Assembly: GCA_963744715.1 (NCBI GenBank)
Contig: CAVUUR010000006.1
Coordinates: 148,299 to 212,298, forward strand
Source: an uncultured bacterium
GTDB taxonomy: Bacteria > Babelota > Babeliae > Babelales > JACPOV01
Direction: 5' to 3'
DNA length: 64,000 nucleotides
Part shown: one piece after another, positions 495-42,571 of the stretch
Position numbering within the stretch: position 1 is the stretch's first letter
How the letters are laid out: each line of letters starts with the position of its first letter
Notes under the pieces: generated by a model
Database searches by the model: none
Seen by the model: the letters and a program-made list of their open reading frames with translations, nothing else
Told to the model about the DNA's origin: nothing
Program-made: the position numbers and the translations under genes

Positions 495-1091
495 ATGAAT
501 AAATTTTTTATGATTTCTTTTACTTCTTTTTTTATGATCATAACAGGTGCTCGTGCAATGCAACAAGACCAAAAAAAAGCATTAGTATCTGCTCTTGCAC
601 ATACCATACGTAAGGCCGATTACGCTACATTTAACGGACTTTATGCAAATAAAAATAATAGTCTTTCCGGTCCTAAAAAAATACAACTTTCTATCCTTGC
701 CTGTAGCAAATTGTTAGCCGCAGATCATGAACAATCTTTGAATAATGGAGCAATATATAAAAGTAAAATGATTAAAGGCATCTTTGGCTTAGGATTTGGT
801 TTAGCTACCGGCTATTTTGTATATAAAGGAATGTCACCAGATTTTTTTCCCAGAAATAACGCAGCCCTAGAAAATAGTTTTTCATCAGTAATACAATCAA
901 GCTATGCTACCGCAAAAATATGTTTGCAGGCTGCAGCCTGGGCGGGGCCATCAGCTCTTGTTGCCGACGGATTACTTAATGTATATCGTGGGTATAATTA
1001 CCAAAATCACTTAATAAATAATTTTTACCAATTGCAATCGATTAACAAAGACATTGGTAGATTAACTCAACCACGGGTTGGCAATCGATAA
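495..1091 (+). CDS. Secreted/membrane protein of unknown function (paralogue of 6138..6614)
   Basis: Signal peptide MNKFFMISFTSFFMIITGARA followed by MQQD. Central Gly-rich hydrophobic segment GIFGLGFGLATGYFVY. C-terminal GYNYQNHL. Same architecture and motifs as the 6138..6614 product. Confidence 0.6.
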   Translation: MNKFFMISFTSFFMIITGARAMQQDQKKALVSALAHTIRKADYATFNGLYANKNNSLSGPKKIQLSILACSKLLAADHEQSLNNGAIYKSKMIKGIFGLGFGLATGYFVYKGMSPDFFPRNNAALENSFSSVIQSSYATAKICLQAAAWAGPSALVADGLLNVYRGYNYQNHLINNFYQLQSINKDIGRLTQPRVGNR

Positions 1092-4568: not shown

Positions 4569-5247
4569 GATCAACAAGGTGCTGGTTGAATAGCGGAGAA
4601 GTTTGATAGGTATAGGTACTATCAGGCTGCACAATGTACGGATTGAATTTTTTAGTCGGATACCCTTTGCTATTGGTAATGGGTAAACTCGCCCCCGTTG
4701 CCTGAATCCCTTTTTCCTGCAAGGCAAGAATCATCGGCTTTAAATCATCAGCATCTTGATCCATAAGTATATAATTATGGCTAGAATCTAACTGCTGCGT
4801 TAATTCTTTATGCAGTACATCAATATTAGCACTCAGTTTGCTCGGTGGATTATCCTGCTCAATCATATTCGTAAAATATTCTAATTTTGGAATAACAATA
4901 CGAATATCTAAAGGATAATTTTTAGCCTGTTCTTCATATAATCGCTTGTAAAACAATGCCGATTCTTTAAGAAATGTATGAAAAACCGATGGTTGCAGGG
5001 TATCTTTTAGATGGCGCATATCAGCACAATAACTTGGCATAAACATATGTACAAGATATCTTGATTGGTTATCTACAGTATTTTCTGTTTTTTGATCCGC
5101 TGTTTTGAGCAGAATGCGTACATTTTCTTGAAGTGTTGTATAATCAAAACCGGCATCAAAAAAAAGTTTAAATAGTGCCGGATTGGAAGAATCACCAATA
5201 TATTCGTTAAATTTTTGTAAGCCAGGGACAACTTTCAAGCGATGCAA
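4531..5247 (-). CDS. Protein of unknown function; probably the C-terminal part of a gene split from 5207..5560
   Basis: ORF begins only with TTG, has no signal peptide, and has no ATG for about 70 codons. It overlaps the upstream signal-peptide ORF by 41 nt in another frame. Paralogous to 3759..4568. Confidence 0.5.
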   Translation of the reverse strand: MHRLKVVPGLQKFNEYIGDSSNPALFKLFFDAGFDYTTLQENVRILLKTADQKTENTVDNQSRYLVHMFMPSYCADMRHLKDTLQPSVFHTFLKESALFYKRLYEEQAKNYPLDIRIVIPKLEYFTNMIEQDNPPSKLSANIDVLHKELTQQLDSSHNYILMDQDADDLKPMILALQEKGIQATGASLPITNSKGYPTKKFNPYIVQPDSTYTYQTSPLFNQHLVDHVHAQYKEKACE

Positions 5248-5560
5248 TATGAGTTTTTACACGCTTTTCTACACCCTTAAGTACTTTATTAATATTATTG
5301 GCCGTAATAGGCTTATTGCTATGATCTGCAAGTTTTTGACAATGTTCTTGCAAACAATGCATATACTGCTCAAAAGCAGAAAAACGTGGCGTTGCACCAA
5401 AAACAGAAATGCTCGATGGTCTATTGCCAATGGATGTGCCAATTGATACATCTTCATTATGATCAATAATAGTTAGTTTTGCTTCTAATCCACTATCCAT
5501 CGCGCTGAGATTGCCACTAAAAAAAGGTATTAAACAAATTAAAAACAATATCTTATTCAT
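5207..5560 (-). CDS. Signal-peptide ORF; probable N-terminal part of the 4531..5247 gene
   Basis: MNKILFLICLIPFFSGNLSA followed by MDSG. The ORF ends inside the start of the next ORF in a different frame. Confidence 0.5.
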   Translation of the reverse strand: MNKILFLICLIPFFSGNLSAMDSGLEAKLTIIDHNEDVSIGTSIGNRPSSISVFGATPRFSAFEQYMHCLQEHCQKLADHSNKPITANNINKVLKGVEKRVKTHIASLESCPWLTKI

Positions 5561-6137: not shown

Positions 6138-6614
6138 ATGAATAAATTGTTTATGATTTTTATTGTCCTTGCTTTCGCGATGACAACAAGTATTAATGCC
6201 ACGCAAGAAGAAAAATCACTTGCTCCTTTTATGATGCAAGCGATCAATAAGCGCGACTATTCTAACTTTCACGGACTTTATACGGGTGCACAAAATTTTA
6301 ATACTTACAAAAAAAAACTTTCTGATTTTTCTCAAGCTAAATTAGATATAGCACAACAAAAAATGAATATAAATCAAGGAGCTATCAATCCAGAAAAAAT
6401 GCTTAAAGGGTTCTGGTTTGTAGGAATGGGTTTAGCTATTAGTCATCTTGTATTATCTAAAGAAACAGATATTGCAGTTGCGTGCGGAGCTGCTACCCTT
6501 CTTACGTTCGGAGTACATGATTTGGTTGATGGCTACTATTACCAAGAGTATTTAAAGTATCAGTATGAACAAGCAAAACAATTGCATGATCAAGCATTTG
6601 CTACACAGAATTAA
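6138..6614 (+). CDS. Secreted/membrane protein of unknown function (paralogue of 495..1091)
   Basis: ATG at 6138 is preceded by CAAGGA. Signal peptide MNKLFMIFIVLAFAMTTSINA. Hydrophobic GFWFVGMGLAISHLVL. C-terminal GYYYQEYL. Collinear similarity to 495..1091. Confidence 0.6.
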   Translation: MNKLFMIFIVLAFAMTTSINATQEEKSLAPFMMQAINKRDYSNFHGLYTGAQNFNTYKKKLSDFSQAKLDIAQQKMNINQGAINPEKMLKGFWFVGMGLAISHLVLSKETDIAVACGAATLLTFGVHDLVDGYYYQEYLKYQYEQAKQLHDQAFATQN

Positions 6615-9555: not shown

Positions 9556-10581
9556 TTATTGGTTCGACTCACCTAATTTTACTGTTTCTTCTTCTGGCAG
9601 AGTAGCTGATAAATTATTAAGAAGGTATCCTATACGCTTTTCTTTCGCTTCAAAAAAGGCCCAATTCGCTTCTTCTGAAGCATTCGTAATTTCTTGTTGT
9701 ATTCTTCCGATTTCACTAAACGATGCGGTAAGTTCATCGATAGTGGATGGAATAGTAATGGTACTTTTTTCTAATGACTTCTTAACGTCATCAGAAGATG
9801 TTGTTATTAGATGTTTATGTAATGCTAAATATCGCTCTTTAAGCTGCTCGTAGTTTTCATAATTAGAGTTTAATAACATGGTATCGAAAAAAGGCGCTTC
9901 GGCCTTTCTAAGATCATCCGCTAGATTATCTAAACAACGCCGACGCTCTGTCTGATTATCTTTATTTTTTATGAGCACATTCCACACGTTCCTAAAGTTA
10001 GAAGGTTGATATTGAGAATAGTTTATCTCTTTCGTTATACGCTCTATTATCTTGATTTCATTCTTACTGATTTTTTTTCTTCCGACAAGCGCTTCCGCTA
10101 ATCGTTGATTAGGATTAGGCACTATATTTTTTTCTTTAATAAAATCTACCAGTTCTTTATCCGACTGAGACTTGTCCAATAAATCTACCATTAAGGCAGC
10201 TACCTTGCTTTGTTGTTTGGAAAATTTAAGATTCAGTTTTGGTGAATCTTTCGATTCATCATTTACTTTAATCCATCGCAACAATCCCCGAAATGTATCA
10301 AATCTTTCAGGAGCTAAAGGTATATATTGAAAAATTTTTTCTATATGATGATTGTCAACAGAACCAAAATTTGGAATGTTAGTATCTGGAATTAACTCAA
10401 CTTGATCAATATGATGAGCAATAACTTTACAACACAAATCATATAATGAATCTATATTTTTTACTTTATTGTGCTCAATGCCAAATTCTTGTTTATTTTT
10501 TTTGGTAATAACATCAATTTCCATTGCTATGAGCGGAAATCCAAAAATTAATGTGTATAGTAGTAGTATATACTGTTTCAT
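9556..10581 (-). CDS. Secreted F-box-like protein, family copy 1 (intact)
   Basis: Signal peptide MKQYILLLYTLIFGFPLIA followed by MEID. Helix SLYDLCCKVIAHHI. F-box-like HHIEKIFQYIPLAPERFDTFRGLLRWIKV. Collinear with the two downstream decayed copies. Confidence 0.7.
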   Translation of the reverse strand: MKQYILLLYTLIFGFPLIAMEIDVITKKNKQEFGIEHNKVKNIDSLYDLCCKVIAHHIDQVELIPDTNIPNFGSVDNHHIEKIFQYIPLAPERFDTFRGLLRWIKVNDESKDSPKLNLKFSKQQSKVAALMVDLLDKSQSDKELVDFIKEKNIVPNPNQRLAEALVGRKKISKNEIKIIERITKEINYSQYQPSNFRNVWNVLIKNKDNQTERRRCLDNLADDLRKAEAPFFDTMLLNSNYENYEQLKERYLALHKHLITTSSDDVKKSLEKSTITIPSTIDELTASFSEIGRIQQEITNASEEANWAFFEAKEKRIGYLLNNLSATLPEEETVKLGESNQ

Positions 10582-10639
10582 AACAATTAACCTCCATTAA
10601 ATAAAACTTAAACCCCCAAGATACCGTAGTAAGTTAGGT

Positions 10640-11640
10640 TTATTTGCCTAACTTACCTAATTTTATTGCTTCTTGCCCTGGCAACGTAGCCGATAAATTT
10701 TTGAGTAAAAATTGCACATTACCGCTTTGATCTTTATCAAGCGCTTTTTTCCCAGCTTCTTGTTTGATATTTTTTATCCTATTAAAGGCCGTAAACTCAT
10801 CAATAGTTAAGGTATCTGATTCAATGCCGATTGTGTTTAATAGCGTCTCAGTACCAGGACAGGCTTGTACCAATGATGTATGCAATTCTGCATATCGCTT
10901 TTTAAGTTGCTGATAATGTACATAATTATTATTCAAGAGCGTAGTATCGAAAAACGGCTTTTCTGCCCTTTTAAAAGTATTTACTAACGTAGATACACAA
11001 AGCCCGCGCAATGGAGATGTCTTCTTAGCATTTATCAACGAGTTCCACGTCTTTTCAAATGAAAAACGCTCATCGGCATTGTAAGATAAGTTTTTTGTCA
11101 TTTGTTCCACTAATGTGATTTCACGTGGACTGATTGATCTTCTTTCAATAAGCGCTTGCGCCAACCATTGATGAGCATTTGGCAATATTGGACTCTTTTT
11201 AATGGCATCCAGTAGTTTCTTTTTTTCTTTATCTAGAGAAGTATCCCTACTTAATTGCTCCACCATCAATGCGGCTCGACCACTTTGTTGGTCGGGAAAT
11301 GTAATGTTTTTATCCCGAGACTGATTGTTTACCTCAATCCATTCCAATAATCGATAAGCCTATTAAGCTTTTCAGGATTTAATAAGTAATTAAAAATTTT
11401 TTCTGTGCAGTGGTCTGGAATTTGACTGAAAGCAACCGCATCAAAATTTAACTCTTTATTATTGGTAGCAATATGCTCACCAATTGCATTACAACACAAG
11501 TCATGCAACGAAGCAATTTCTCCAACAACGGCTTGCATTTCGTGTACATTTTTGTTCTTAGAAGAAGCACGATCTATTTCCATTGCTACTACTGGAAATC
11601 CCAAAAATATGCAGAGCGATAACAATATATAATGTTTCAT
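10640..11640 (-). pseudogene. F-box-like family copy 2, interrupted by one frameshift near 11329-11347
   Basis: The N-terminal ORF (MKHYILLSLCIFLGFPVVA/MEID ... IPDHCTEKIFNYLLNPEKLNRLIDYWNGLR*) and the C-terminal ORF (LLEWIEVNNQ...) are contiguous homologues of copy 1 but lie in different frames. Confidence 0.6.
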
Positions 11641-11706
11641 ATAATTCCCCCACTAGATATGGGGAATTCATAATTTAAAAACTATGAACTCCCAAAAAAA
11701 TTATGT

Positions 11707-12711
11707 TTAAAAAAGCTTAAATGTAATAAGATCAGTAGGCTGAGCTTTTAAATCTTGTATTTTATTTTTTTCTTCTTTTGGAAGAGTTGAATCTAAGTAG
11801 TCCAGTAATGAACCCACTTGATTAGTCTGCTCTGTTAAAAACTGGTGAAGATTATTGCGTCCTTTGCTAGATTCGGTTTTTTATTTTATCAACGTTGTTA
11901 AATGCAATAAGTTCATTTATGGTTAGTACGGTTAGCGTTAATATCTCTTTGACGTAATGTCATCCACATATTCAGGATCAAAGCTTATAAACATTCCGCG
12001 CAATGCTAAATATTTTCTTTGCAAATACTTCATAACCTTGATAGTTGCAATCTAACAATACTTTGTCAAAAATTGGTTCCTGCACTTCCCTTAGCTGATA
12101 AGAAGTTTGCTTGGCTAAATCGGAAGCCATTGCTTCATCTTGCTTTCCTGCTATAGCTTTCCACATACTGTATACCGGCACAGACGAATCAACTTTAGGT
12201 TTTTTTTGATTTTTTAATATCACTCCCAAAGATTTTTGGACATCCTCACCGATTATTCTTCTTTCAATAAGAGTTTTTCGGCTAATGATTGGCTCGCGTT
12301 AGATGTTTCATTATCGCTACCTAGTATCATTGATACTGCTTTGCAAACATTCTGATTAGAAAATGCAAGCTTAAGCCTTGATTGGATTTCTGATTGTTCA
12401 TTAACTTTCGCCCATTGTAACAATAATTCAAAATTTTCAGGATTTAAGCCTGCATACTCAAAAATTTTTTCTTTGTTATAATCAAAAATATTACCAAAAT
12501 TAGGTATTCCAGTATTAGTTAATTCGACTGCACCAATATTCAAACCAACAACTTTACAACATAAATCTTGTAATGAATCCGGGTTTGCCACTGCCCCTTC
12601 AATCATACGCTCTTCTTTGATTCTTTTAGAAGAACTATCTATCTCCATCATTTCCATGGCCGCTACCGGCAAACTGCATAATAATACAGATAATAATAAA
12701 TATTGTTTCAT
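11707..12711 (-). pseudogene. F-box-like family copy 3, multiple frameshifts/stops
   Basis: N-terminal ORF 12253..12711 (MKQYLLLSVLLCSLPVAA/MEMMEID ... KEKIFEYAGLNPENFELLLQWAKV). Middle fragment 11978..12229 (EPIFDKVLLDCNYQGYE). C-terminal remnant ending LLDYLDSTLPKEEKNKI...KLF* at 11707. All three lie in different frames. Confidence 0.55.
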
Positions 12712-12822
12712 AATAATCCCTAACCTTCGGTATATAAACATAAATAAGAAATTAACTATAAAAAATATAATACCATTATTTAAATAAAAAAACAAGGTGG
12801 TAATTCAGAATGAAAACTATTA

Positions 12823-14349
12823 TTATAACGATATGCCTATTTTTGCCCATGCGCCCCAGGTGCGGAAGGCAGTATTTTGTTGTGGTGTCTCAAAGAAGGC
12901 GCCCAGGCCAATAAATGTTTCACAGCAGGAAACTGATAAGAATAGATTAGTTGCTACATGCCAACGATGAACGACTGCTGCTCGTGTTGACCCGGAAAGA
13001 AGGTCAAGGTCGAACTCTACAATTGGTATAAATGCCGGCTGACTATTAACCATATCATTAGGAGCCTGTTGCGCAATCGTACTTGCACTTGCCGTAGCAC
13101 CAACGTTAGTACCTGGCACTAACGTTCCATCTCCCGCAATACCAAAAACCGGCGGGAAGTGACGATGCAATTTAAGCATTTCATCACCATGTAACCACAG
13201 ATCATAGCCAGCTTCAAATTCAACAAAATCATTTTCATAACGAAAACCTACTGAAATATCTGCCATATTAAACGGTTTTACGCGTACTTTTCTGGTGAGA
13301 ATGTTAACCGCCGGAATATTTTTTCTACCATCAAGCGCATTGAGTAAAAGGTAGCGACTCCATGCTTTGCATTTGAGATCTAACGTACGCCATTGAATAT
13401 TACGCACCAAATACAAATTTTCTATATTAAAAAATAAGGCAAGCAAATATGGATCTTGGCAGCTGTTTAACGGAAATTGAAAGTTGACCCCCGTACCAAA
13501 TACAAAATGCCGATTATTACCAAGAAAAGGATTAAAAAGAAACTCAGCTTGTTGTGGTGCTGCCGTCGGTGCAGTAAATATGGTATAGGCACCAATCTGG
13601 AATCCATCACGATTCATACATACGGTACCAAGTTTGAACACAATTTCGCTTAACCCCATTTTTTTATGAGATTTTAAGCTAATTTTGCCGAATTCCCAAC
13701 TGTTTTGATTGAATGCTTGAAAAATAGTAGTTGGAAGGCCCGGTGTATCAGGACCGGTTTGAATAATATTCTGTCTTAATTTTGGATTATTTTCTATATA
13801 CTGAATCGGCAATGCAAGTGCTATCCAAAAACCATCAAAAAAATCCGATTTAAATAATGTGGGAAATAGTTTTTGATGAAATTCAAGCCACAAACTAGCC
13901 TGACGTTGCTGCGGATTTAATTGCATAGTACCAACAAAGTTTGATGGCAAATTAATCCATTCAGCACGAATATTACGCAACTGTGGATCTTGTGCCGCAT
14001 CACCTTTAACGATAATAATATTTTGTTTATTGATCATAAAATAACGCGCAACGTTATTTAAATGTGAGGTATGTTGATACATAGCAATTGCTTGGGCACT
14101 GCTACCCCATGGATCACACGGTTCATAAACAAAATCATGCCATGCTGTTTGTTGTGCAGCTAAATTTCTGTAAACGGGTCTGGTAAACATAAATGATTGG
14201 GCATTTTTTTCAAAATGATTTGAAACAGCAGCAAACATTTGACGAGGATTAATATTTTCTGCAGGTGGAAATTCGACACAATTATCACCATACTGATTTG
14301 ATACCGACATTACCACTAAAATCAATAACGTTATCATGCTTTTCTTCAT
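12823..14349 (-). CDS. Secreted protein, possible outer-membrane beta-barrel/porin
   Basis: Signal peptide MKKSMITLLILVVMSVSN. 508 aa rich in aromatic/Gly/Asn alternating stretches. No recognisable catalytic motif. The porin assignment is a guess. Confidence 0.45.
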   Translation of the reverse strand: MKKSMITLLILVVMSVSNQYGDNCVEFPPAENINPRQMFAAVSNHFEKNAQSFMFTRPVYRNLAAQQTAWHDFVYEPCDPWGSSAQAIAMYQHTSHLNNVARYFMINKQNIIIVKGDAAQDPQLRNIRAEWINLPSNFVGTMQLNPQQRQASLWLEFHQKLFPTLFKSDFFDGFWIALALPIQYIENNPKLRQNIIQTGPDTPGLPTTIFQAFNQNSWEFGKISLKSHKKMGLSEIVFKLGTVCMNRDGFQIGAYTIFTAPTAAPQQAEFLFNPFLGNNRHFVFGTGVNFQFPLNSCQDPYLLALFFNIENLYLVRNIQWRTLDLKCKAWSRYLLLNALDGRKNIPAVNILTRKVRVKPFNMADISVGFRYENDFVEFEAGYDLWLHGDEMLKLHRHFPPVFGIAGDGTLVPGTNVGATASASTIAQQAPNDMVNSQPAFIPIVEFDLDLLSGSTRAAVVHRWHVATNLFLSVSCCETFIGLGAFFETPQQNTAFRTWGAWAKIGISL

Positions 14350-14500
14350 TGATATTCCTTTTTAATAATGAAGCATTCCCTAAAGCTTAGGATAGCTTGC
14401 GCAGAAAAACAAGTGAGATGTACAATAAAATTTTATTGATAACCATCAATTACGCTCTTTTTTATGCATACTTTAGTTCTTTTTGGATACTATTCTTCCT

Positions 14501-14545
14501 CAATACTATTTTTTTCATCCTGATGAACGCAAAAAAATAGTATTG
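14501..14545. repeat. Perfect 15-bp inverted repeat with 15-nt spacer in a divergent intergenic region
   Basis: CAATACTATTTTTTT (14501-14515) and AAAAAAATAGTATTG (14531-14545) are exact reverse complements. Confidence 0.8.
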
Positions 14546-14744
14546 CCAAGCTGCCCCAAACAATAATCAAAAAAATGGTTGTATAATTACCTATCAGAGG
14601 TTTTTGATAATCAAAACATGCTTCTATTATATTTTTTTATAAATTTTTTTTATGGAATCAAAGAATCGCAAGAGATTGCAAAATAACTGCGTTTTGTTTT
14701 ATGTTACTAGTAATACCTACCCTCATAACTCAGGAGTGGTTTAC

Positions 14745-15758
14745 ATGTCCCTATCAATAAGAAAAGTAATTACTACTATATTTGCCTTACTCATGCTAGG
14801 TTTTGTTATTATTTTTCATGAAATGGGTCATTTTTTTACCTGCAAATTATTTAACGTAGCAACGCCAGTTTTTTCCGTTGGATTTGGCCCTGCACTCATT
14901 CATCGTACCATTGGTCAAACCAGATTTCAGCTTGCACTACTGCCATTGGGTGGTTACGTTAGCATTAATAATAAAGATCTTGATACAAAACCATACTGGC
15001 AAAAAATGGTGATTACCTTAGCGGGTATTTTTAATAATATTATTCTTAGTTTATTTCTTATTATTATTCTTTTTTTAATTAATCGCTCAATAATAGTACC
15101 GGTCATAGGCGATATAACATCCGGCTCACCCGCCGATAAAGCAGGATTGCAACGTAATGATAAAATTAGTATGGTTAATCATATACCATTACATAATACC
15201 ATGACGTTACTCATGCAGATTATTCAATCATCGCCCCATAAAAATATTACGTTGAGTATTACAAGAAACAATACACCGCTTGAAAAAGTAGTACATCTGG
15301 AACGAACAATTTTTATGGGAACATCTGTCGGCTACTTAGGAGCTACTTTTTGCACCGATACCACACATACCAAATCATTCGGCACCAGCATCATGGAAGC
15401 ACTGCAAACAACAAAAGCATTAATCTATGAATATATTTTTTTATTAATAGGCTTATTTAAATCAACATCACCAAAACAGATTAAGGGCCCGTTAGGGATA
15501 CTTGCCTTAACCAGCCAAAGCCTTTCACAAGGATTATCTTTTTTTCTCTTTTTTATAGCGAGCATCAGTATTCAATTGGGAATATTCAATCTTATTCCTA
15601 TCCCACTCCTGGATGGCGGACAGGCCTTTGAATATACCCTTCAAGCAGCAACCGGCAATATGTTATCCTTTGAGGATGTCGCCCTTATTCATTACAGTAT
15701 ACTGATACTCTGCATTCTGTTCATTATTTATATTAATAGAAAGCCCCGTACTACATAA
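14745..15758 (+). CDS. rseP: RseP-like site-2 protease (M50 zinc metalloprotease with PDZ domain)
   Basis: HEMGHFF (HExxH) in the first TM. PDZ-like GSPADKAGLQRNDKI. C-terminal NLIPIPLLDGG. AGGAG at 14732-14736 lies upstream of the ATG at 14745. Confidence 0.85.
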   Translation: MSLSIRKVITTIFALLMLGFVIIFHEMGHFFTCKLFNVATPVFSVGFGPALIHRTIGQTRFQLALLPLGGYVSINNKDLDTKPYWQKMVITLAGIFNNIILSLFLIIILFLINRSIIVPVIGDITSGSPADKAGLQRNDKISMVNHIPLHNTMTLLMQIIQSSPHKNITLSITRNNTPLEKVVHLERTIFMGTSVGYLGATFCTDTTHTKSFGTSIMEALQTTKALIYEYIFLLIGLFKSTSPKQIKGPLGILALTSQSLSQGLSFFLFFIASISIQLGIFNLIPIPLLDGGQAFEYTLQAATGNMLSFEDVALIHYSILILCILFIIYINRKPRTT

Positions 15759-15790
15759 TGGCGAACATGATTTATATCAATAATTCACCG

Positions 15791-17211
15791 TTATTTTTTT
15801 GCAAGAAGATTATCAATAATTAGTTCAAGAAAATTGTTGTTTTTTCCCGGCACATAACGCGCATGCCATTCAATTAAAAAACCTTTTTTTAACGCCATAG
15901 AATGATAACCGGTAAGAATATAATTTTCTTGGGTAAATCTTAATGAGCAAAATTGTGCAGCATGAAATCCATAGAGATCCCCAGAAAATGCAGGGTTAGG
16001 TTTTGGGGCGAGGTCCCAAGTCTTAATAAATCCCTCACCACCACGCGCACCAATCTGCTGGCCATTATCATTAAAGGCGAGTGCATTAACTGATCCAAGA
16101 TCATGCGGCAATTGCGCGATAAATTTATTTTCTTGTACATTGTATAAGGCAATTTTTTCATTTTCTTTTTTGTTTCATACAATGCCATGGCGAGAATATG
16201 AGGATCAGTTGGGGCAAAAAGTGCTGAAGAAATCTCATAATCTCGTGAAAATTTAGTCCTTTCCGATGCGCCAGCACGAATAAACGTTTTTAATAAAGTA
16301 CGCGTTGCCACATTCCATAATTTAACCGCACCATCAAAAGCAGCAGAGGCCAATAAAGAACCATCACTATTAAAACTTACGGTGTGCCCAAATCCCATAT
16401 GTCTTCCCAACGTAGCTTCTTCTTTCCAGGTTTGTGTATTCCATAATTTAACCATTGCATCATCTGATGTACTTGCCAACAATGTTCCTTGTGGATTAAA
16501 AACAACAGAAGTAACCGCATCTTCATGCTGGAGGCCTGCAACTTCTTTACTATCAAACCGATCATCTAATTCAAGTATCTTGATATTGGTAGTTTGTTTA
16601 CCAAGAAAACCTACCGCAATAATATTATTATTTTTTGGATTAAAAGCTAATGATCGAATCGGTTTTTCAGTTACTTCTATTTCTTTAATTAATGATTTTT
16701 TACTCCAGTCCAAAATTTGTAATGTACCATTATAATTGCCAACAACTACGATATTAGTACCTTGTGGATGTTGCACAATAACACTTGGATTATTTTCAGT
16801 TAATATAACTGCACCAATATCTTTAAAATAATCCGGCTTTTTACTCATTATAGAGATAGCAAGGTAATCTTGAACCACATCTGCTGCTTTCCCCAATTGC
16901 TCAAGTACAGCAAAAAGCTCATCTTTATTTTGTTGTGTAACTTTTTCTATTATATAATCTGCATACTTATTTAGATCAATTTTTTTATAATCACGAGCTT
17001 CTATGTGCGGTTTTAAATCATTAAACAATGATGCAAAAACAGAAATTGGTTTTGGTTTTACTGCTATTGGCAGCTGGGCAAGCATTGTTGAAAGTTCACG
17101 TAAGTTCTGATTGAGGAGTAATAAATTATCTTGTATATCCTGCAATGCTCCTGAGCAGGTATATTCATTACCAATGAGTACAAAAAATATTATAATCAGA
17201 TAGCGCTTCAC
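15791..17211 (-). CDS. Secreted WD40-repeat protein, reading frame broken in a T6/A6 run at 16166-16171
   Basis: Signal peptide MKRYLIIIFFVLIGNEY. WD40 units (LASTSDDAMVKLWN, LASAAFDGAVKLWN, GFIKTWDL). The downstream ORF 15791..16111 continues the repeats after a 1-nt shift within ACAAAAAAGAAAATG. Confidence 0.7.
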
Positions 17212-17298
17212 TAAAACTCCTATTGCATATTTTGATAAAAAACGGTTATTTACCTAATCAAATAGCATATTCGATGCAATAAAAGCAATATAAAAAAT

Positions 17299-17328
17299 AA
17301 ATGCTCACATGTATGCATGCGAGCATTT
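17299..17328 (-). terminator. Hairpin followed by a T-rich run downstream of 17379..17867
   Basis: AAATGCTC ... GAGCATTT stem. On the minus strand it is followed by TTATTTTTTA. Confidence 0.5.
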
Positions 17329-17378
17329 ATTACATTACATAAGAAAATATCGTAATTATTTTTTTGCAGTTTTTTTCT

Positions 17379-17867
17379 TTAGTTCTTTGCTGTATAAATT
17401 GTTAATTGTGATTGAAATTCTTCATCAGTCGAAATATCAATATTTGTTCTACTGGTTAATGCATCTACAATGCTTGACACCACTTGAATTTTTGAACCAT
17501 TATTCAACGCTTCATTGCACAGTATTATTGAATAAATTGATAACTCTTTAAAAATTGGTACTAGCTTCACGCCTTTAGACTGGCTATACCGACCATATGC
17601 ACTAGCTGCACAATCGTTAAAAAAATCTGCTCTCCCTAAATAGGTAATATAATTTTTGCCATCTTCATTCACAAGCACCGCTTCCTGCATATTGCGCACA
17701 GCAAGAGTGCCGCAAAATTCAATAAATTTAGCATTATCCAAAGCATTAATTTTTGATTGTTGCCCTGATGTCAAGGCGATAGCATCAAATATTGACGTAT
17801 TATCTTGCATAGCTAAACAAGCATTAAGCACAGTGATAAAAAACAATAACATTAATTTTTGACTCAT
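17379..17867 (-). CDS. Small secreted protein (tandem paralogue of 17895..18359)
   Basis: Signal peptide MSQKLMLLFFITVLNACLA followed by MQDN. LVNEDGKNYITYLGRADFFNDCAASAYGRY aligns with VINDKGYNIISYGNLYEKSLLFNQLADDAYNRY in the neighbouring gene. Confidence 0.6.
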   Translation of the reverse strand: MSQKLMLLFFITVLNACLAMQDNTSIFDAIALTSGQQSKINALDNAKFIEFCGTLAVRNMQEAVLVNEDGKNYITYLGRADFFNDCAASAYGRYSQSKGVKLVPIFKELSIYSIILCNEALNNGSKIQVVSSIVDALTSRTNIDISTDEEFQSQLTIYTAKN

Positions 17868-17894
17868 ATTATACCTTTAGCGAACCTCAATTAC

Positions 17895-18359
17895 TTAACT
17901 AAAAAAAACACCATATTCTTCTGGTTCTAAATTTATACCGTCAAGATTAGCAATAATCAAGCTTTTCAAATCTACGGCTTGATCAATTACGCCAGCATCA
18001 TACAATATTTCATCACGCTGCACAACGTTTCTTAATATAGCAATTGCATGTTTTATTGCTTCAAATTTATTTTTATGTAAATTTTTCGCATCCTTAATAG
18101 CTGAGCTAGAGTAAAGAATTGATTTATGTGAAAAGTCTAATGCAATTTTCTTATAATTTTCGCTTGCAGCCAAATCGTTCTCAATGTACCGATTGTAAGC
18201 ATCATCAGCTAACTGATTGAATAATAAAGATTTTTCATACAAATTACCATAGCTAATTATATTGTAACCTTTATCGTTAATCACGTTAATTTCTAAATCT
18301 TGTTCCATAGCACAACAACTATGAACAAAAATGGATACTAAAAAAACTATTATATACAT
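17895..18359 (-). CDS. Small secreted protein (tandem paralogue of 17379..17867)
   Basis: Signal peptide MYIIVFLVSIFVHSCCA followed by MEQD. Similarity to the adjacent gene is as noted for that gene. Confidence 0.6.
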   Translation of the reverse strand: MYIIVFLVSIFVHSCCAMEQDLEINVINDKGYNIISYGNLYEKSLLFNQLADDAYNRYIENDLAASENYKKIALDFSHKSILYSSSAIKDAKNLHKNKFEAIKHAIAILRNVVQRDEILYDAGVIDQAVDLKSLIIANLDGINLEPEEYGVFFS

Positions 18360-18368
18360 ATGCTTTTC

Positions 18369-19373
18369 TTATCGTTGTAATTTTTGCTGTTGTAACTCTC
18401 TTGACGCATCAATATTTATAAAATCTTTGCAGAATTTTTCCAATCGTTCTTCAGGTATATTTTTTTCCAATGTATTTTCTACTATCCAATCACTCAATAA
18501 TATGCCCTCATTTAATAAATCCTTATTACGAGATGCGCTAATTTCCGATACACTGTCAAGTACTGAATTAAGATGTTTATCAATATCATCTTGATGATCT
18601 TGTTTCTTCAACGTTCTTATATACTTACTAAAACCGATATATGCCTGTTCTTGGACAGTCAAAAGCATCATAAATTTTCTTTCATCGTCAGGGGTCATTT
18701 TACGTGAAAAACTATTTTTTCTTCCTCTCGTTCGTACCGCCGACTTATTCACAGATTTTACGTATTCTTTGAATTGCCCATCGCAAAATTGCGCAAGACT
18801 ATAAGGATTTAAGTCTTTGTCCTCCAACTTAATTGCTCGAGCAGCCTTTTTTGCAAATACCTTAAATTCATCATTATACTTTCTCACAAAATTAATAACT
18901 TCTTGATGGCAACTCGCATTCATTACCTTCTCTATACGAGTTTTAGTTTGAAGAAATTGTTCCCTATCTGACTTACATTTTTCAGAACTATTCAAAGCAA
19001 CTGAATGGCGTATAAACCCCGATAAATTACCATTATTGTCCGCTATACCCTTTTCTTTAATTGCGGATAGCCTTAGCATAACTTCTAACAAACCTACCTT
19101 CTCATCATTATTTTCCATGGGTAGCGTTGGTGCTTCAGCAATATCCCCAGGATATTCAACCGCAGGCGACCTTAAGAAAACGTCCATACGTGCTTTCTGA
19201 TCATCATTATTACTTTTTATTGGTAATATCTCATTCTTTCTAATTTCATCCATTATTCGCGCAAGCACTACCTCGCCATCAGGATCTATTTGCTCAAGCT
19301 TATCATTCTCCATGCCGAAACACTGCCCTACAAAAACAGCTGAAAACATTACAAATATAAATTTATTATTCAT
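18369..19373 (-). CDS. Secreted helical protein of unknown function
   Basis: Start taken at MNNKFIFVMFSAVFVGQCFG followed by MEND. Charged, helix-prone sequence. The upstream part of the ORF looks like non-coding AT-rich read-through. Confidence 0.55.
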   Translation of the reverse strand: MNNKFIFVMFSAVFVGQCFGMENDKLEQIDPDGEVVLARIMDEIRKNEILPIKSNNDDQKARMDVFLRSPAVEYPGDIAEAPTLPMENNDEKVGLLEVMLRLSAIKEKGIADNNGNLSGFIRHSVALNSSEKCKSDREQFLQTKTRIEKVMNASCHQEVINFVRKYNDEFKVFAKKAARAIKLEDKDLNPYSLAQFCDGQFKEYVKSVNKSAVRTRGRKNSFSRKMTPDDERKFMMLLTVQEQAYIGFSKYIRTLKKQDHQDDIDKHLNSVLDSVSEISASRNKDLLNEGILLSDWIVENTLEKNIPEERLEKFCKDFINIDASRELQQQKLQR

Positions 19374-19526
19374 AAATACCTTTATTAAAAACATATTATA
19401 TACTACAAAACAATTCATAGCATAACTGAAAATGAAATAAAGTAAATATAATAAAAAAACCTTTACTGGCAAATTTATTGTATATTTTTGCACAAGAGAA
19501 AATATTTTGAAGGATAAAAATATTCG

Positions 19527-20945
19527 TTATTTTATTATACCTTGAGCATGCAAAAATGTATTGAGATCCCCATACTCTACAGATTCCGTCATATCTTCTA
19601 TTCTTAGGCGATATTCAATATCAGTAAGGATTGCGCCAATTTCAGGCGATTTCGTTGCCGAATATGCTTTTTGATACTCTTGCGCCGATTGAGCAAACAT
19701 TAGCATATAATATTCACGAACCTTGGCTCGTTTAGTTTCCTCAGTTCGTTCAGCTTTCTCATCAACTTCTTTTTCACCGATAATTTTTTCATATTGCTTG
19801 CTTACTTGCTCATCGATAGTTTTTTCATACTTTTCTTTTAATTGCTCAGCGATAATATATTGCGTATATGCCCTTTGTTTACAATCATACCCAGATACAA
19901 GATTATTATCCTTAATGTATACATAGGCCTGCGCAATCTTGCTCAGCAATGTTGTATCAACATGAGTATCTTGCCAAAAAAAAGCTGGAGGGGTCATTTC
20001 TAGTTCGAAAATTTTTTGAAGCAACCGTTGACCATCCTTGGATTCAGCCCCCATAAGATTTTCGACGGCATTCAGAACTGAACAATAGGTATGCTGCTTA
20101 CCTAGGGGTGTAGCAAAAAAATCTTTAGCCCTTTGAATAGTGCCACTAAGCTCAACAGAAAAAAGATTGCCCGTTAAAAATTGTTTATATTCTTCCTGGC
20201 TGAGCAACGTTACTTTTTTTTGTAATGTTTCAAAATTTTTTTGATCTTTTTCTTTAATCGCCAACAATGTCTTAATAGATTTTAAGGCAGCAAGACTGGT
20301 GTAGTATCTGGCCTCCAAAGGCAATTCAACCTCAGAACAGGCAGTACTTAATGCATCGATAAGCCCTGAAGAAAATTTATTATCTTCTAAAAGAGCTGTA
20401 TATTCATCCCTACTTAATAACGTTGCTTCTTCTTTTAATAATTCAAACGTTGTTTGATCTTTTTCTTTAATTTCTAATAATGTCTTAATAGATTTCAATG
20501 AAGCGAGACAAGTATAAATTTTGGCACTTTCTTGATTCCCAAGTTTCTCATAGGCCTTACTTAATGAAGTAATAAGTTCTGGTGTAATAAAATCATCATC
20601 CTTATACACGATATTAGGATATTTTTTATTAAGCTCCTCAAACGCTTCTACTGCGCGCTCTACAGAGTCATTATTTTTAAGATTAACCAACGTTTCAACT
20701 TCCATTAATGCCCTTTTAAGAGCATCTTTATCCGTTTTATACGTATCATTGCTCAAACTTCCACGGTTAACTTCTGGACTTTTAATTTCCTTTTTCCGAG
20801 AAAATAATTTGAACCCACTTTTAGTTTTGGTTGGATTAGCCTCAAAAATTTTTTTGTTATCTTTTGTTACAGAAGTAATTTCCATTGCACTGCAACGGCA
20901 ATCAAGAAAAAATAATGGAAGCAGTAGTAATATTTTGTAATTCAT
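19527..20945 (-). CDS. Secreted helical-repeat protein with internal 71-aa tandem duplication
   Basis: Signal peptide MNYKILLLLPLFFLDCRCSA followed by MEIT. SLKSIKTLLEIKEKDQTTFELLKEEATLLSRDEY repeats as ALKSIKTLLAIKEKDQKNFETLQKKVTLLSQEEY. The DNA repeat cores at 20241 and 20454 are 213 nt apart. Confidence 0.6.
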   Translation of the reverse strand: MNYKILLLLPLFFLDCRCSAMEITSVTKDNKKIFEANPTKTKSGFKLFSRKKEIKSPEVNRGSLSNDTYKTDKDALKRALMEVETLVNLKNNDSVERAVEAFEELNKKYPNIVYKDDDFITPELITSLSKAYEKLGNQESAKIYTCLASLKSIKTLLEIKEKDQTTFELLKEEATLLSRDEYTALLEDNKFSSGLIDALSTACSEVELPLEARYYTSLAALKSIKTLLAIKEKDQKNFETLQKKVTLLSQEEYKQFLTGNLFSVELSGTIQRAKDFFATPLGKQHTYCSVLNAVENLMGAESKDGQRLLQKIFELEMTPPAFFWQDTHVDTTLLSKIAQAYVYIKDNNLVSGYDCKQRAYTQYIIAEQLKEKYEKTIDEQVSKQYEKIIGEKEVDEKAERTEETKRAKVREYYMLMFAQSAQEYQKAYSATKSPEIGAILTDIEYRLRIEDMTESVEYGDLNTFLHAQGIIK

Positions 20946-28457: not shown

Positions 28458-30056
28458 ATGAAAAAGTATTTTTTATTGTTCTTTATGGCATCGCCTTTGC
28501 GTGCTGATTTTAAAGATATAGAAGAATCATTACAATCTCTGGCTACTACGTTAGATACCATGCAAAATCTATTACAAAAAATGCCAACTGAACAACAGCC
28601 CCAACAACCGATTGAGCAACTAAAAACTCCGGTATTGACCATCAATTTTTCCTATGCAACGTTCAATGAGTGGTATACTGATTGCATGAAATTACCTTAT
28701 TACCGAGAAATGGGGACTGATTATTCACGCCAGCCGCCCAGACTTAGCGCAAATGAAGTAGATAGGGTTTTGAAAGGATTTACATCAACATTACGCGATA
28801 GTCCTTTAATCAAAAAAGAGCATTGGGTAGATCAAAAAGCAACTCCCGATGTTTCTTTTTTTGACCTTTCTGTGGAACTATTTAAACCGTATGTGCAAAA
28901 ATTAGTTGTTCCTAGTGACAGTGAAACGGCATTCCATGGAGATCTTCATGGCGATATTCATTCATTGTGTAAGTATCTAAAAGAATTGAGTAAAAAAGGA
29001 TATCTTGACACTAAAGATCCATTTAAGATTATCAAAAAAAATTTTTATATGATTTTTTTAGGTGATTATGTTGACCGTGGCAACTATGGCCTTGAAGTTA
29101 TTTACACCATTTTACGATTAAAAATAGCAAATCCCGATAAGGTGTTTATGGTTCGGGGGAATCATGAAGATAAATCCATAAACATTGATTATGGATTTGC
29201 CGAAGAACTTGATACAAAATTACCACACAATAAAATATTACATGATCATATTTATGGTCTATACAATTTACTTCCTGTTGCATTGTATTATGGGTCTGGA
29301 AATCCGACTTCATTAACTTTTTTCCAATGTTGCCACGGCGGCATGGAGCTTGGCTACTTACCGGAACAATTATTAGCCACTAAAGAATTAATTACATTTC
29401 AATGGTTAGGAACGTTAAACAGACCCGAAAATTTAAAAACGATTCTTGAAAACAAGTATAGGAAACTTGCCAACCAACAAAAAAATGTAAATTCTGTAGT
29501 AACAGGGTTTATTCAACAAACAGTTCCGCGACAAATTCAACAATTAAAAGATTATACTACTGCAGATATTGGTTTTATGTGGAATGATTTTGTAATTCAA
29601 CCAAATACTTATATTCATGCAAGCTCTCGAGGAAACATGATAGCCGAATATGGAGAACGCCTCACTTCCCTCATCCTCGAAGGCAGCATTAGCGAAAAAT
29701 ATAATCATACCGTTAAAGGTGTTTTTAGAGCACATCAACATAGTAACGAATTCACTAACCCATATGGCGAAAAAACTATGATGAGCGTTATTTTAGATGA
29801 TACGTATCCTAACAGCTTGGGGGTAGGAAAATTATGGAGAACAACAAAACGTTCCCAAAATCCTGCTACGCAATTATGGGATAATATAGTATGCACCTTT
29901 AATGTTTCTCCAGACACTGCCTATAGTAGGCCTAGGGGAACGTATCCTGGCTTTGATTTCGATACGTATGCTATGGTAAAAACAGGAAATAAGTATCCGG
30001 ATGATTGGAACTTTGATGTACATCGAAAAACCATATTACCAGCATTATTAAAATAA
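28458..30056 (+). CDS. Secreted PPP-family Ser/Thr protein phosphatase (eukaryote-like)
   Basis: GDLHGD, GDYVDRG and RGNHE metallophosphoesterase motifs. Signal-like MKKYFLLFFMASPLRA. N-terminal Leu/Gln helix plus a Pro/Gln linker. Confidence 0.8.
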   Translation: MKKYFLLFFMASPLRADFKDIEESLQSLATTLDTMQNLLQKMPTEQQPQQPIEQLKTPVLTINFSYATFNEWYTDCMKLPYYREMGTDYSRQPPRLSANEVDRVLKGFTSTLRDSPLIKKEHWVDQKATPDVSFFDLSVELFKPYVQKLVVPSDSETAFHGDLHGDIHSLCKYLKELSKKGYLDTKDPFKIIKKNFYMIFLGDYVDRGNYGLEVIYTILRLKIANPDKVFMVRGNHEDKSINIDYGFAEELDTKLPHNKILHDHIYGLYNLLPVALYYGSGNPTSLTFFQCCHGGMELGYLPEQLLATKELITFQWLGTLNRPENLKTILENKYRKLANQQKNVNSVVTGFIQQTVPRQIQQLKDYTTADIGFMWNDFVIQPNTYIHASSRGNMIAEYGERLTSLILEGSISEKYNHTVKGVFRAHQHSNEFTNPYGEKTMMSVILDDTYPNSLGVGKLWRTTKRSQNPATQLWDNIVCTFNVSPDTAYSRPRGTYPGFDFDTYAMVKTGNKYPDDWNFDVHRKTILPALLK

Positions 30057-36187: not shown

Positions 36188-37474
36188 ATGAAAAAAATAT
36201 TTTACATATTATATGTAATCGGTAATTATTCTTTATGTATGGATTATAATGATCAAACTATTCCTTCTTTGCGCACACTAGCAGCACAGATGTATACCAC
36301 GCATAATAATAACCCCTATGAATTTAGCAAAAAAAAGATACCTGACGATTGTCAAAATCTGCTAGCTCAAGCATGGTGTAATAATAATCCGGAAAAAGTT
36401 CCTCACTACGTATATCAATGCAATACCTTATCTGAGCAGGCATCTAAACAAACTATACTATGGGGGGATTGTGATACTCTTTTGATGGCTGATAACAATA
36501 ATTTTACTATTTTTGATATTTGCTCCGACACGGTAATTAAAAAAATTCCTCTTGATCAAGGATTTCACAATAACTACGCACAACTATCAACCACTATGAT
36601 TGCCACTGCTCACAAAGACAATAAAATAATAAAACTCTATGATATAAAACATGATACCGAATCTCTCAATGCATATAACCATAGTTTTTCTCTTGTTCCG
36701 TTATTTCTTGATGAAAAAAACATCATGTTAACTGAATATAACTTTCCCAATATTGCATATTTTTGCTATCAACTTGAACCATGGCAAGAAAAATATGTTA
36801 TTGATACGCAAACTTTCGTAAAAAATACTTGTTGCGCCGTAGGGATAGCGAATAATACCTTTATTGTTAATAATCCCCCTCTTGGCATTCATATATTTGA
36901 TCTGAACGACGGGCGACTACAAGAAATATTGCCAGAAAGCAGCCGAATAAAATCGGCACTACTTTCAGGAGATAAAACAATAGTTGGTGGCTACCAAACA
37001 CAAGAAGGTTCATTAGATGCTCTTACGTTATGGAACCTCGTAACTAAAAAAAAATCCGTGGCTCATTATCTGCAATCGCCATTTTTTCTTACCGATAATA
37101 AAGTTTTTTATTACACCAATAATGAGGTATTAGATTTGCAGAAAAATGTGTTCTATAAACCTTATTACATCGCATCAAAAAAGATCAAAGACAAACTTTT
37201 TATTCCTCAAAAAGTTTGTAATGCTCATAATATTATGCTTCTTACTACCAATAATGTATCACCAGAATTTTTTGTAACTAACAACAACGAACCATCAACG
37301 TTACATGAACTGCTTGGCGCATTAGATGTTGCATCATTACTGGAACAAACAACTACCCTAACGACTGCGCAACAACGAATTAATGAACTAGAGGAACAAC
37401 TACAAAATTTGCCTCATGATAGTGATAAAAAATCTATCGCACAAATATTGCATTCATTAACAGATAATTATTAA
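36188..37474 (+). CDS. Secreted protein with F-box-like N-terminus and degenerate WD40-like repeats
   Basis: Signal MKKIFYILYVIGNYSLC followed by MDYN. IPSLRTLAAQMY and KIPDDCQNLLAQAWCNNNPEKV align with the 9556..12711 family. Later segments such as DNKIIKLYDI and DALTLWNL look WD-like. C-terminal helix RINELEEQLQNL. Confidence 0.55.
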   Translation: MKKIFYILYVIGNYSLCMDYNDQTIPSLRTLAAQMYTTHNNNPYEFSKKKIPDDCQNLLAQAWCNNNPEKVPHYVYQCNTLSEQASKQTILWGDCDTLLMADNNNFTIFDICSDTVIKKIPLDQGFHNNYAQLSTTMIATAHKDNKIIKLYDIKHDTESLNAYNHSFSLVPLFLDEKNIMLTEYNFPNIAYFCYQLEPWQEKYVIDTQTFVKNTCCAVGIANNTFIVNNPPLGIHIFDLNDGRLQEILPESSRIKSALLSGDKTIVGGYQTQEGSLDALTLWNLVTKKKSVAHYLQSPFFLTDNKVFYYTNNEVLDLQKNVFYKPYYIASKKIKDKLFIPQKVCNAHNIMLLTTNNVSPEFFVTNNNEPSTLHELLGALDVASLLEQTTTLTTAQQRINELEEQLQNLPHDSDKKSIAQILHSLTDNY

Positions 37475-42486: not shown

Positions 42487-42571
42487 TGTCTCTATTTTCG
42501 TTATCTGCAAAATCAAAGGGTCATTAATATAAAATACTTATTCTTATTGTAAATAATTTTTTACAAAATGT

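Follow-up and report, generated by a model that had tools for sequence, protein, structure and literature searches.

A recurrent methionine at the predicted signal peptidase I junction of secreted proteins in a Babelota genome

The closest described counterpart of the element reported here is the canonical Sec signal peptide with its signal peptidase I site, recognized by the von Heijne (-3,-1) or 'AXA' pattern. In a 64,000-nucleotide stretch of contig CAVUUR010000006.1 from an uncultured member of the Babelota (hereafter, the window), 13 genes encode proteins whose N-terminal hydrophobic segment ends in the tripeptide [A/G/C]-M-[E/D/Q]. These segments share with canonical signals the layout of n-, h- and c-regions, the length (17-21 residues in all 13) and a neutral or acidic early mature region. 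In canonical Sec signals elsewhere the residue after the cut (+1) is varied, Met making up about 3-4% in our controls, whereas here about one signal peptide in two is followed by Met (22% in related loci), and in the window Glu, Asp or Gln is fixed at +2.

Two other bacterial systems invite comparison. In lipoproteins the residues just after the signal peptidase II site decide the destination (the +2 'Lol-avoidance' rule); that rule applies to acylated proteins with a lipobox and its invariant Cys at +1, and no lipobox is found among the 13 sequences. Type IV prepilins and pseudopilins have a short basic leader, are cut after Gly and carry Phe or Met at +1 and Glu at +5; their hydrophobic segment follows the cut, whereas in the window it precedes the junction.

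The Dependentiae (Babelota, TM6) are a widespread phylum of obligate intracellular parasites of protists, of which only a handful have been cultured. The window has a GC content of 35%, and its housekeeping genes (ribonucleotide reductase, MutL, H+-pyrophosphatase, RseP and PilN) are interspersed with secreted ORFans and eukaryote-like repeat proteins, in which ankyrin or WD40 repeats stand behind a signal peptide. Its phosphatidylserine decarboxylase (PSD) shares at most about 50% identity with any public sequence, and because the best named relatives come from 'Candidatus Babeliales' and 'Babeliaceae' metagenome-assembled genomes (MAGs), we treat the window as a divergent member of the Dependentiae. 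Among described members, Chromulinavorax has signal peptides on 44% of its coding sequences (PMC6561590), and the cultured relative Babela massiliensis has them on 79 of 126 ankyrin proteins, with type II secretion the only secretion system detected (PMC4378268).

Exposed N-termini carry information in eukaryotic hosts as well. In Plasmodium, cleavage of the PEXEL element (RxLxE/Q/D) by plasmepsin V exposes an x-E/Q/D N-terminus that marks proteins for delivery to the host (PMC3567231, PMC10900883). The likeness to the window lies in an intracellular parasite, a proteolytically exposed N-terminus and the same E/Q/D set at the second mature position. PEXEL itself is eukaryotic, is cut by an aspartic protease of the endoplasmic reticulum downstream of the signal sequence, leaves a first mature residue that is variable and N-acetylated, and leads to export through PTEX, whereas at the window junctions the signal peptidase itself would cut and Met is invariant; the analogy is a functional one only. 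A PEXEL-like element was also sought and rejected, since none of the 13 proteins has RxL ahead of its junction. The mature N-terminal residue likewise controls the stability of bacterial toxins in the host cytosol (PMC3755998, PMC2518864), and the potency of anthrax edema factor varies more than 100-fold with it (PMC3755998). What the anthrax edema and lethal factors have in common with our case is an N-end rule that sets half-life in a eukaryotic cytosol, where the window proteins would also arrive, judging by their ankyrin content and the Babela and Chromulinavorax literature; the anthrax factors are single tested toxins, with no proteome-wide Met(+1) signature described. Finally, human complement C3 has secreted and cytosolic isoforms made by alternative initiation (PMC9095555) and resembles the window genes in having an in-frame Met after the signal peptide. 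The junction ATGs differ from it in that they are without initiation signals and their flanks obey signal-peptidase rules.

Our reading of the window, to which we give a rough probability of one in two, is that the tripeptide is a signal peptidase I junction that leaves a selected, Met-first N-terminus on secreted effector-like proteins.

Thirteen signal peptides and their junctions

An earlier note on this DNA had listed the 13 junctions among about 22 proteins with signal-like N-termini. All 13 N-termini translate as it described, from the same gene starts, and seven lie inside positions 9556-20945 (gene starts 10581, 11640, 12711, 17867, 18359, 19373 and 20945). A scan for n- and h-regions followed by curation gave about 23 cleavable-looking signal peptides, 13 of them with the junction. 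Cleavage sites were predicted by the (-3,-1) rule combined with a heuristic scanner of n- and h-regions. In the following list the second pair of coordinates locates the signal peptide with its junction, and a slash marks the predicted cut.

Gene 495-1091, 198-residue ORFan: 495-563, forward strand, MNKFFMISFTSFFMIITGARA/MQ, Met codon 558-560; a Shine-Dalgarno-like GGGG lies upstream of the true start
Gene 5207-5560, 117-residue ORFan without Pfam match: 5495-5560, reverse strand, FFSGNLSA/MD, Met codon 5498-5500
Gene 9556-10581, 341 residues, tandem family copy 1: 10519-10581, reverse strand, FGFPLIA/ME(ID), Met codon 10522-10524; GGAGG lies upstream of the true start
Tandem family copy 2, split open reading frames (ORFs) 11329-11640 and 10640-11347: 11578-11640, reverse strand, LGFPVVA/ME(ID), Met codon 11581-11583
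Tandem family copy 3, split or truncated ORFs 12253-12711 and 11978-12229: 12652-12711, reverse strand, CSLPVAA/MEMMEID, Met codon 12655-12657
Gene 17379-17867, 162-residue ORFan: 17805-17867, reverse strand, VLNACLA/MQ, Met codon 17808-17810
Gene 17895-18359, 154-residue ORFan: 18303-18359, reverse strand, MYIIVFLVSIFVHSCCA/ME, Met codon 18306-18308; the weakest of the 13, with no Lys or Arg in the n-region and a weak Shine-Dalgarno sequence
Gene 18369-19373, 334-residue ORFan: 19308-19373, reverse strand, VFVGQCFG/ME, Met codon 19311-19313
Gene 19527-20945, 472-residue helical-repeat ORFan with an internal 213-nucleotide repeat (family D1): 20880-20945, reverse strand, FFLDCRCSA/ME, Met codon 20883-20885
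Gene 36188-37474, 428-residue ORFan: 36188-36244, forward strand, MKKIFYILYVIGNYSLC/MD, Met codon 36239-36241
Gene 38115-39131, 338-residue ankyrin protein (Ank_2 slightly under the cut-off): 39066-39131, reverse strand, LFQFSLC/MD, Met codon 39069-39071
Gene 46570-47082, 170-residue ORFan with a GTG start: 46570-46635, forward strand, VNNYVVLCSALFTIFSTLAA/ME, Met codon 46630-46632
Gene 54208-56145, 645-residue ankyrin protein: 56080-56145, reverse strand, IGMHTAFA/ME, Met codon 56083-56085

Apart from gene 46570, all of these genes start with ATG (12 of 13). Position -1 is Ala in ten, Cys in two and Gly in one, and position -3 is Cys in four, Leu in three and Ala, Val or Ser in two each, all of them allowed residues; a helix-breaking or polar residue stands at -4 to -6. 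The n-region carries Lys or Arg within the first 2-6 residues in 11 proteins, those of genes 18359 and 46570 having none, and the best eight-residue Kyte-Doolittle mean of the h-region is at least 2.0 in all 13 (range 2.2-3.8). Beyond the cut, +1 is Met throughout and +2 is Glu (8), Asp (3) or Gln (2), with Asp or Glu at +4 in six proteins, so that several begin M-E-x-D. The first eight mature residues are polar and acidic, with a net charge of zero or below in 11 of the 13. The sequence-level marks of Sec export and signal peptidase I cleavage were all found: the n-region, an uncharged h-region, a c-region whose -1 and -3 residues are small, and a residue other than Pro at +1. Judged by this arrangement, the tripeptide is probably a signal peptidase I junction of Sec-type signal peptides, with the small residue as predicted P1 and the next two as P1'-P2'.

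The earlier note had suggested that the internal ATG might instead be a second in-frame start, producing a cytosolic isoform without the signal peptide beside the exported form. It is true that the residue is always the canonical-start amino acid, that the ORF of gene 46570 contains no ATG ahead of the one at the junction, and that the U-rich, weakly structured signal-peptide codons could in principle allow initiation independent of a Shine-Dalgarno sequence. The upstream starts, however, clearly have such a sequence: their duplex energy with the anti-Shine-Dalgarno averages -6.3 kcal/mol (77% at or below -5), with GGAG- or AAGG-like sequences at most of them. At the junction ATGs the mean is -1.4 kcal/mol and none of the 13 reaches -5, much as at 348 other internal in-frame ATGs (mean -1.15 kcal/mol), from which they differ neither in Shine-Dalgarno pairing nor in local folding energy (Mann-Whitney p = 0.61 and 0.44, respectively). 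In gene 46570 itself, the GTG scores -5.6 kcal/mol and the junction ATG +0.4. A second start would also leave the small residues at -1 and -3 unexplained in every case, and ankyrin-type, host-directed proteins have no evident use in the bacterial cytoplasm. We consider dual initiation quite improbable, and find no support for the suggestion in Shine-Dalgarno pairing or local folding.

Chance, common descent or repeat DNA, mis-called starts and other types of signal can be treated together. That three of the 13 are tandem paralogues, and that Cys occurs in several c-regions, might be taken as hints of such an origin. Against the window's own background for [AGC]M[EDQ] (6.5e-4 per position, beyond residue 40 of its long ORFs), the probability of at least 13 in 23 is about 4e-23, so chance is excluded. 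Paralogy is insufficient too, as the earlier note had argued: BLASTP of the window's secreted proteins relates no members of the 13 to one another except the three tandem copies at 9556-12795, and leaves at least 11 independent families. DNA repeats extend across a junction only among those three copies (family D11 joins copies 1 and 2), and the flanking codons vary (GCA, GCT, GCC and GCG for Ala, GAA and GAG for Glu, and likewise those for Asp and Gln). The motif is therefore a feature of the amino acid level, and a DNA-level motif or cassette is ruled out by the codon variation together with the confinement of junction-covering repeats to the tandem family. Mis-called starts fit poorly with upstream starts that have Shine-Dalgarno sequences and a canonical n-h-c organization. 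As to other signals, inspection of the residues before Cys showed N-A with Asn at -3, or H-S, Q, D, R or L, none a lipobox; no RR occurs in any of the 13 n-regions, as a Tat signal would have; and a prepilin is rejected because the hydrophobic stretch precedes Met instead of following it and the mature start is polar and acidic. Taken together, these explanations are highly improbable.

The tandem family is a secreted ORFan of 341 residues, triplicated at 9556-12795 (reverse strand) with a period of about 1060 nucleotides. Correcting the earlier account, copies 2 and 3 are split ORFs; they look like decaying duplicates or uncorrected frameshifts. The 'F-box-like' label of the earlier note has no Pfam support, with no F-box match at E <= 0.01. 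A/MEID is identical in the three paralogues, which share only about 40% identity overall, and is as conserved as the domain core. An AlphaFold2 model of the 341-residue protein (9556-10581) is all-helical with a mean pLDDT of 49, too low for a comparison of folds, and a search of 5.8 billion proteins returned no homologue but the protein itself. Similarly, when the first 200 residues of an ankyrin protein served as query in an exhaustive HMMER search, the only matches were the protein itself, its paralogue in the window and generic ankyrin repeats.

Two further observations concern residues at the cut. Cys is unusually frequent beside it, at -3 in four proteins, at -1 in two and also in the DCRCSA of gene 20945. 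Genes 36188-37474 and 38115-39131 have the six residues SLC/MDY in common, with Cys and not Ala at -1, and no other detectable similarity.

Methionine at +1 across the lineage and the residue that follows

One heuristic served for all data sets: a basic n-region, a hydrophobic core, a (-3,-1)-compatible site at most 12 residues from the core, Met at +1 and a polar continuation. Gene starts in fetched loci were our own heuristic calls. Controls were the loci of other phyla, which made up most of the matches listed from a PSD alignment scan of a genome collection; a scan of the collection with the window's outer-membrane-protein-like gene gave no match. The Babeliales-like sample is small, and all of it lies around one marker gene. 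Loci L008, L012, L085 and L091 belong to it by name and most others by PSD similarity to named MAGs, while L092 is ambiguous by that similarity and syntenic with other Babeliales-like loci, and L095 was included without a PSD check. The junction was found as follows.

Window, 64 kb: 10-12 of 24 (automated), 13 of about 23 (curated)
14 Babeliales-like loci, about 260 kb: 20 of 91 (22%)
78 loci of other phyla, 1.28 Mb: 10 of 256 (3.9%), mostly at doubtful sites
39 low-GC loci among the 78, 0.67 Mb: 4 of 148 (2.7%)
11 Chlamydiae loci among the 78, 0.19 Mb: 0 of 19

The window's 10-12 of 24 stands against 10 or 19 of 256 in the 1.28 Mb from other bacteria (Fisher p = 3e-7 and 4e-7). The Babeliales-like loci differ from all controls with p = 1.3e-6, and the comparison with low-GC bacteria that the earlier note had proposed came out in its favor (22% versus 2.7%, p = 2.3e-6). 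Met(+1) is thus a lineage-wide bias of Babeliales/Dependentiae secreted proteins, strongest in the window genome (13 of about 23). We found no description of it in the Babela, Chromulinavorax and Babelota papers or in full-text literature searches. Of the three readings that the earlier note had offered, a signal-peptidase or sorting motif is the best supported, by the exact (-3,-1) site and the roughly 6-fold enrichment of Met(+1) in other Babeliales-like loci relative to diverse and low-GC bacteria. The residue at +2 varies in the relatives (D, E, H, R, N, S, P and others), so Met(+1) is the shared part and E/D/Q at +2 is specific to the window genome, a division absent from the earlier note.

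A bias that is lineage-wide and sits exactly at P1' is also what one would expect if the lineage's signal peptidase I merely worked most efficiently on substrates with Met at P1' (and, in the window's species, an acidic residue at P2'), in which case the pattern would reflect cleavage kinetics only. An altered S1'/S2' pocket would select just these residues flanking the scissile bond. However, the window's thioredoxin (LHA/EV), metallophosphoesterase (LRA/DF) and outer-membrane-protein-like protein are exported without Met(+1), the pattern is present in only 22-55% of signal peptides, and the P2' preference differs among related genomes. We regard an enzyme preference of this kind as distinctly unlikely.

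The placement of Met was checked without presupposing the motif, by taking the first Met past the hydrophobic core and scoring the residue before it. That residue is small in 27 of 35 cases from the window and the Babeliales-like loci versus 10 of 38 in controls (p = 2e-5), which puts Met precisely at the P1' of a signal-peptidase-type site; all 27 also carry an allowed residue at -3. Position +2 is equally distinctive. Lys is absent there (0 of 33, versus 19% in ordinary N-termini of the same genomes; p = 0.0014), and residues that permit removal of Met (G, A, S, T, C, P and V) occupy it in 3 of 33, compared with 27% in ordinary N-termini (p = 0.03) and 7 of 10 in the control 'junctions' (p = 4e-4). 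E/D/Q is found at +2 in all 13 window proteins versus 19% of ordinary N-termini (p = 4e-10).

These figures bear on a historical explanation, in which Met is the old start codon of a protein that gained its signal peptide by 5' extension into AT-rich DNA, and survives as a slowly decaying relic. Many of these proteins would be acquired or specific to the lineage. AT-rich upstream DNA readily encodes peptides rich in Phe, Ile and Leu, a residue encoded by one codon only would not have to be gained convergently, and frequent gain of signal peptides is plausible given that Dependentiae secretomes are very large. The acidic +2 would then reflect a filter for export-compatible N-termini. The Met class is without recognized periplasmic enzyme families, and in two paralogue pairs at about 35-40% identity Met has been lost (to Thr and to Ala), as a neutral residue would be. 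Yet a relic Met need not stand exactly at +1, where the 27 of 35 versus 10 of 38 above places it, and the +2 residues are unlike those of ordinary N-termini, with no Lys, few small residues and E/D/Q in 13 of 13 window proteins. Even with Lys, Arg and hydrophobic residues set aside, E/D/Q would make up only about 44% of the window's ordinary second residues (hand count), giving about 1e-4 for 11 independent families. Moreover, no residual Shine-Dalgarno sequence lies upstream of the junction ATGs, A/MEID is as conserved as the domain core across three diverged paralogues, and no signal-less homologue starting at the aligned Met was found, homologues being almost absent for these ORFans; among PSD homologues no start at the aligned Met was seen either. 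A fossil start codon is, on balance, unlikely. Selection on the mature N-terminus, suggested by the precise placement and the restricted +2, seems to us a serious if still tentative possibility.

Secreted proteins with and without the junction, and neighboring genes

The earlier note had also raised an export or effector class. Within the window, Pfam recognizes ankyrin repeats or nothing in the 13 proteins, and no enzyme family. The proteins without the junction include members of recognizable enzyme families (PSD, thioredoxin and metallophosphoesterase) and the outer-membrane-protein-like protein (no family match), and their +1 residues are E, D, Q and others. In related loci the Met(+1) class comprises ankyrin, DOT1-like and AAA proteins and many ORFans.

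A number of observations weigh against our reading, to be set beside the small, single-marker sample described above. The forward-strand paralogue of gene 495 (6138-6614) reads VLAFA-MTTSINA/TQEE, with Thr at the aligned site and a second possible A/M site upstream of it. The paralogue of the ankyrin gene 54208-56145 (56331-57356, reverse strand) has a homologous signal peptide ending VFG/ALQRD, with Ala at +1, from which it follows that the cleavage position is conserved and Met is not obligatory. G/ALQ takes the place of the Met junction in the window's WD40 protein as well as in this ankyrin paralogue, and some UCH and ankyrin proteins of related loci are likewise without Met(+1); given these exceptions, Met(+1) is not a strict effector tag. 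In addition, most signal-peptide proteins without Met in related loci also have no Pfam domains (hand tally from gene tables). The effector-class suggestion thus survives in part: the window's Met(+1) proteins are ORFans or ankyrin proteins with no enzyme family among them, and the WD40, ankyrin and UCH exceptions stand against it. The association is real in the window and modest overall.

One of the related loci (L082, 13076-17110, reverse strand) encodes two AAA-ATPase paralogues with long, atypical signal peptides ending PLSY[AT]/MD. They resemble the secreted AAA family of Babela, whose signal peptides have been called 'somewhat atypical' (PMC4378268). A protein search with the Met(+1) AAA protein of this locus returned mostly archaeal CDC48.

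Several other genes of the window deserve mention. The typA/bipA translational GTPase gene (40814-42516, reverse strand) has fallen apart into six or more short ORFs that lie in different frames, with GTP_EFTU at 42023-42361 and BipA_C at 40814-41014; this is probably a pseudogene, as neighboring housekeeping genes are intact. The secreted WD40 protein (15940-17211, reverse strand) appears frameshifted near 16100, where the overlapping ORF 15791-16111 continues with 'GFIKTWDL', a WD-repeat-like fragment that Pfam does not confirm. A similar coiled segment follows the signal peptide of this WD40 protein (17130-17211, reverse strand; ALQDIQDNLLLLNQNLRELSTMLAQLP) and of the metallophosphoesterase (28458-28560, forward strand; DFKDIEESLQSLATTLDTMQNLLQKMP), and a similar Leu-heptad tail closes both ankyrin paralogues. 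The coiled segment and the Leu-heptad tail may be shared interaction or targeting modules. ORF 37475-38182 (reverse strand, 235 residues, without signal peptide) overlaps the 3' end of the ankyrin gene 38115-39131 and shares 49% identity with residues 116-304 of its product; it is a partial tandem duplicate. The PilN-family gene (50759-51310, forward strand) is preceded by an unannotated gene for 225 residues (region 50095-51310), and both genes belong to a type IV pilus or type II secretion-like apparatus, the sole kind of secretion machinery reported for the phylum. Rfam and tRNA scans detected no tRNA, tmRNA or Rfam family in the 64-kb window.

In an independent sequencing run, a 6.5-kb contig (L001; Logan ERR11748453) encodes a ribonucleotide-reductase small subunit identical to that of the window, and the N-termini of its thioredoxin and of its gene 20945 counterpart match those of the window exactly, so this organism also occurs in a second data set. 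The related loci also conserve the NCA2 family (PF08637, nuclear control of mitochondrial ATPase), at 4518-6107 of L083, 100-1713 of L093 and 10001-10528 of L095. These genes encode an N-terminal signal or anchor and are of a eukaryotic type unexpected in bacteria; a metagenome scan with NCA2 gave one locus only.

A Met-first mature N-terminus and its possible roles

According to the reading that we prefer, translation would begin at the upstream codon bearing the Shine-Dalgarno sequence, and the n-h-c signal peptide of 17-21 residues would carry the protein through Sec. A cut after the small -1 residue would then leave a mature protein that starts with Met, followed in the window genome by Glu, Asp or Gln. 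Met would be retained because the next residue almost never allows its excision. The exported protein would thus start like an unprocessed protein made in the cytosol, and its Met-first, non-hydrophobic N-terminus would resemble that of an ordinary host protein. The likely purpose would lie in the fate of the protein after Sec export, either its stability or recognition in the host cytosol or a second step of export. We infer from sequence that the junction bond is cut, that the mature N-terminus is under selection and that it may act in the host.

By the specificity rules of MetAP and NatB, Met-Glu, Met-Asp and Met-Gln form the class that is acetylated by eukaryotic NatB (PMC4692089). As a bacterial counterpart of the x-E/Q/D N-terminus exposed by PEXEL cleavage, Met(+1), followed in the window genome by Glu, Asp or Gln, might constitute a maturation code of the Dependentiae effector secretome, the exposed N-terminus mimicking the NatB-class start of a host-made protein, although we hold this extension to be doubtful. 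Such a start could shield an effector from host N-degron pathways or permit its N-acetylation; alternatively, a second export step, by type II secretion or in vesicles, could recognize the N-terminus. A candidate modifier would be the product of gene 39233-39811 (reverse strand), a proposal we offer as speculation. It belongs to the GNAT acetyltransferases and matches RimI, which acetylates protein N-termini, better than any other family, though its score of 48.8 bits is below the cut-off of 86. A basic n-region is combined in it with a hydrophobic signal-anchor of transmembrane length, and its gene adjoins the Met(+1) ankyrin gene 38115-39131.

Some points count against the host-mimicry idea in particular. 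Because Arg, His and Pro are among the +2 residues of the relatives, N-termini of the NatB type are not general. Acetylation of an imported protein is speculative, since NatB ordinarily works on proteins during their translation. Avoidance of N-degrons alone fails to explain Met, since Ala, Ser and Gly are also stabilizing N-termini.

In Dependentiae, programs for gene calling and signal-peptide prediction may misplace starts or cleavage sites if they were trained on other bacteria. As a fossil start codon, Met(+1) would visibly document the gain of signal peptides on a large scale through N-terminal extension. If it is functional, it would suggest that effectors exported by Sec have an unrecognized requirement at their mature N-terminus, connected with sorting or with stability in the host, and would supply a sequence rule by which the effector repertoire of these parasites could be predicted from metagenome-assembled genomes.

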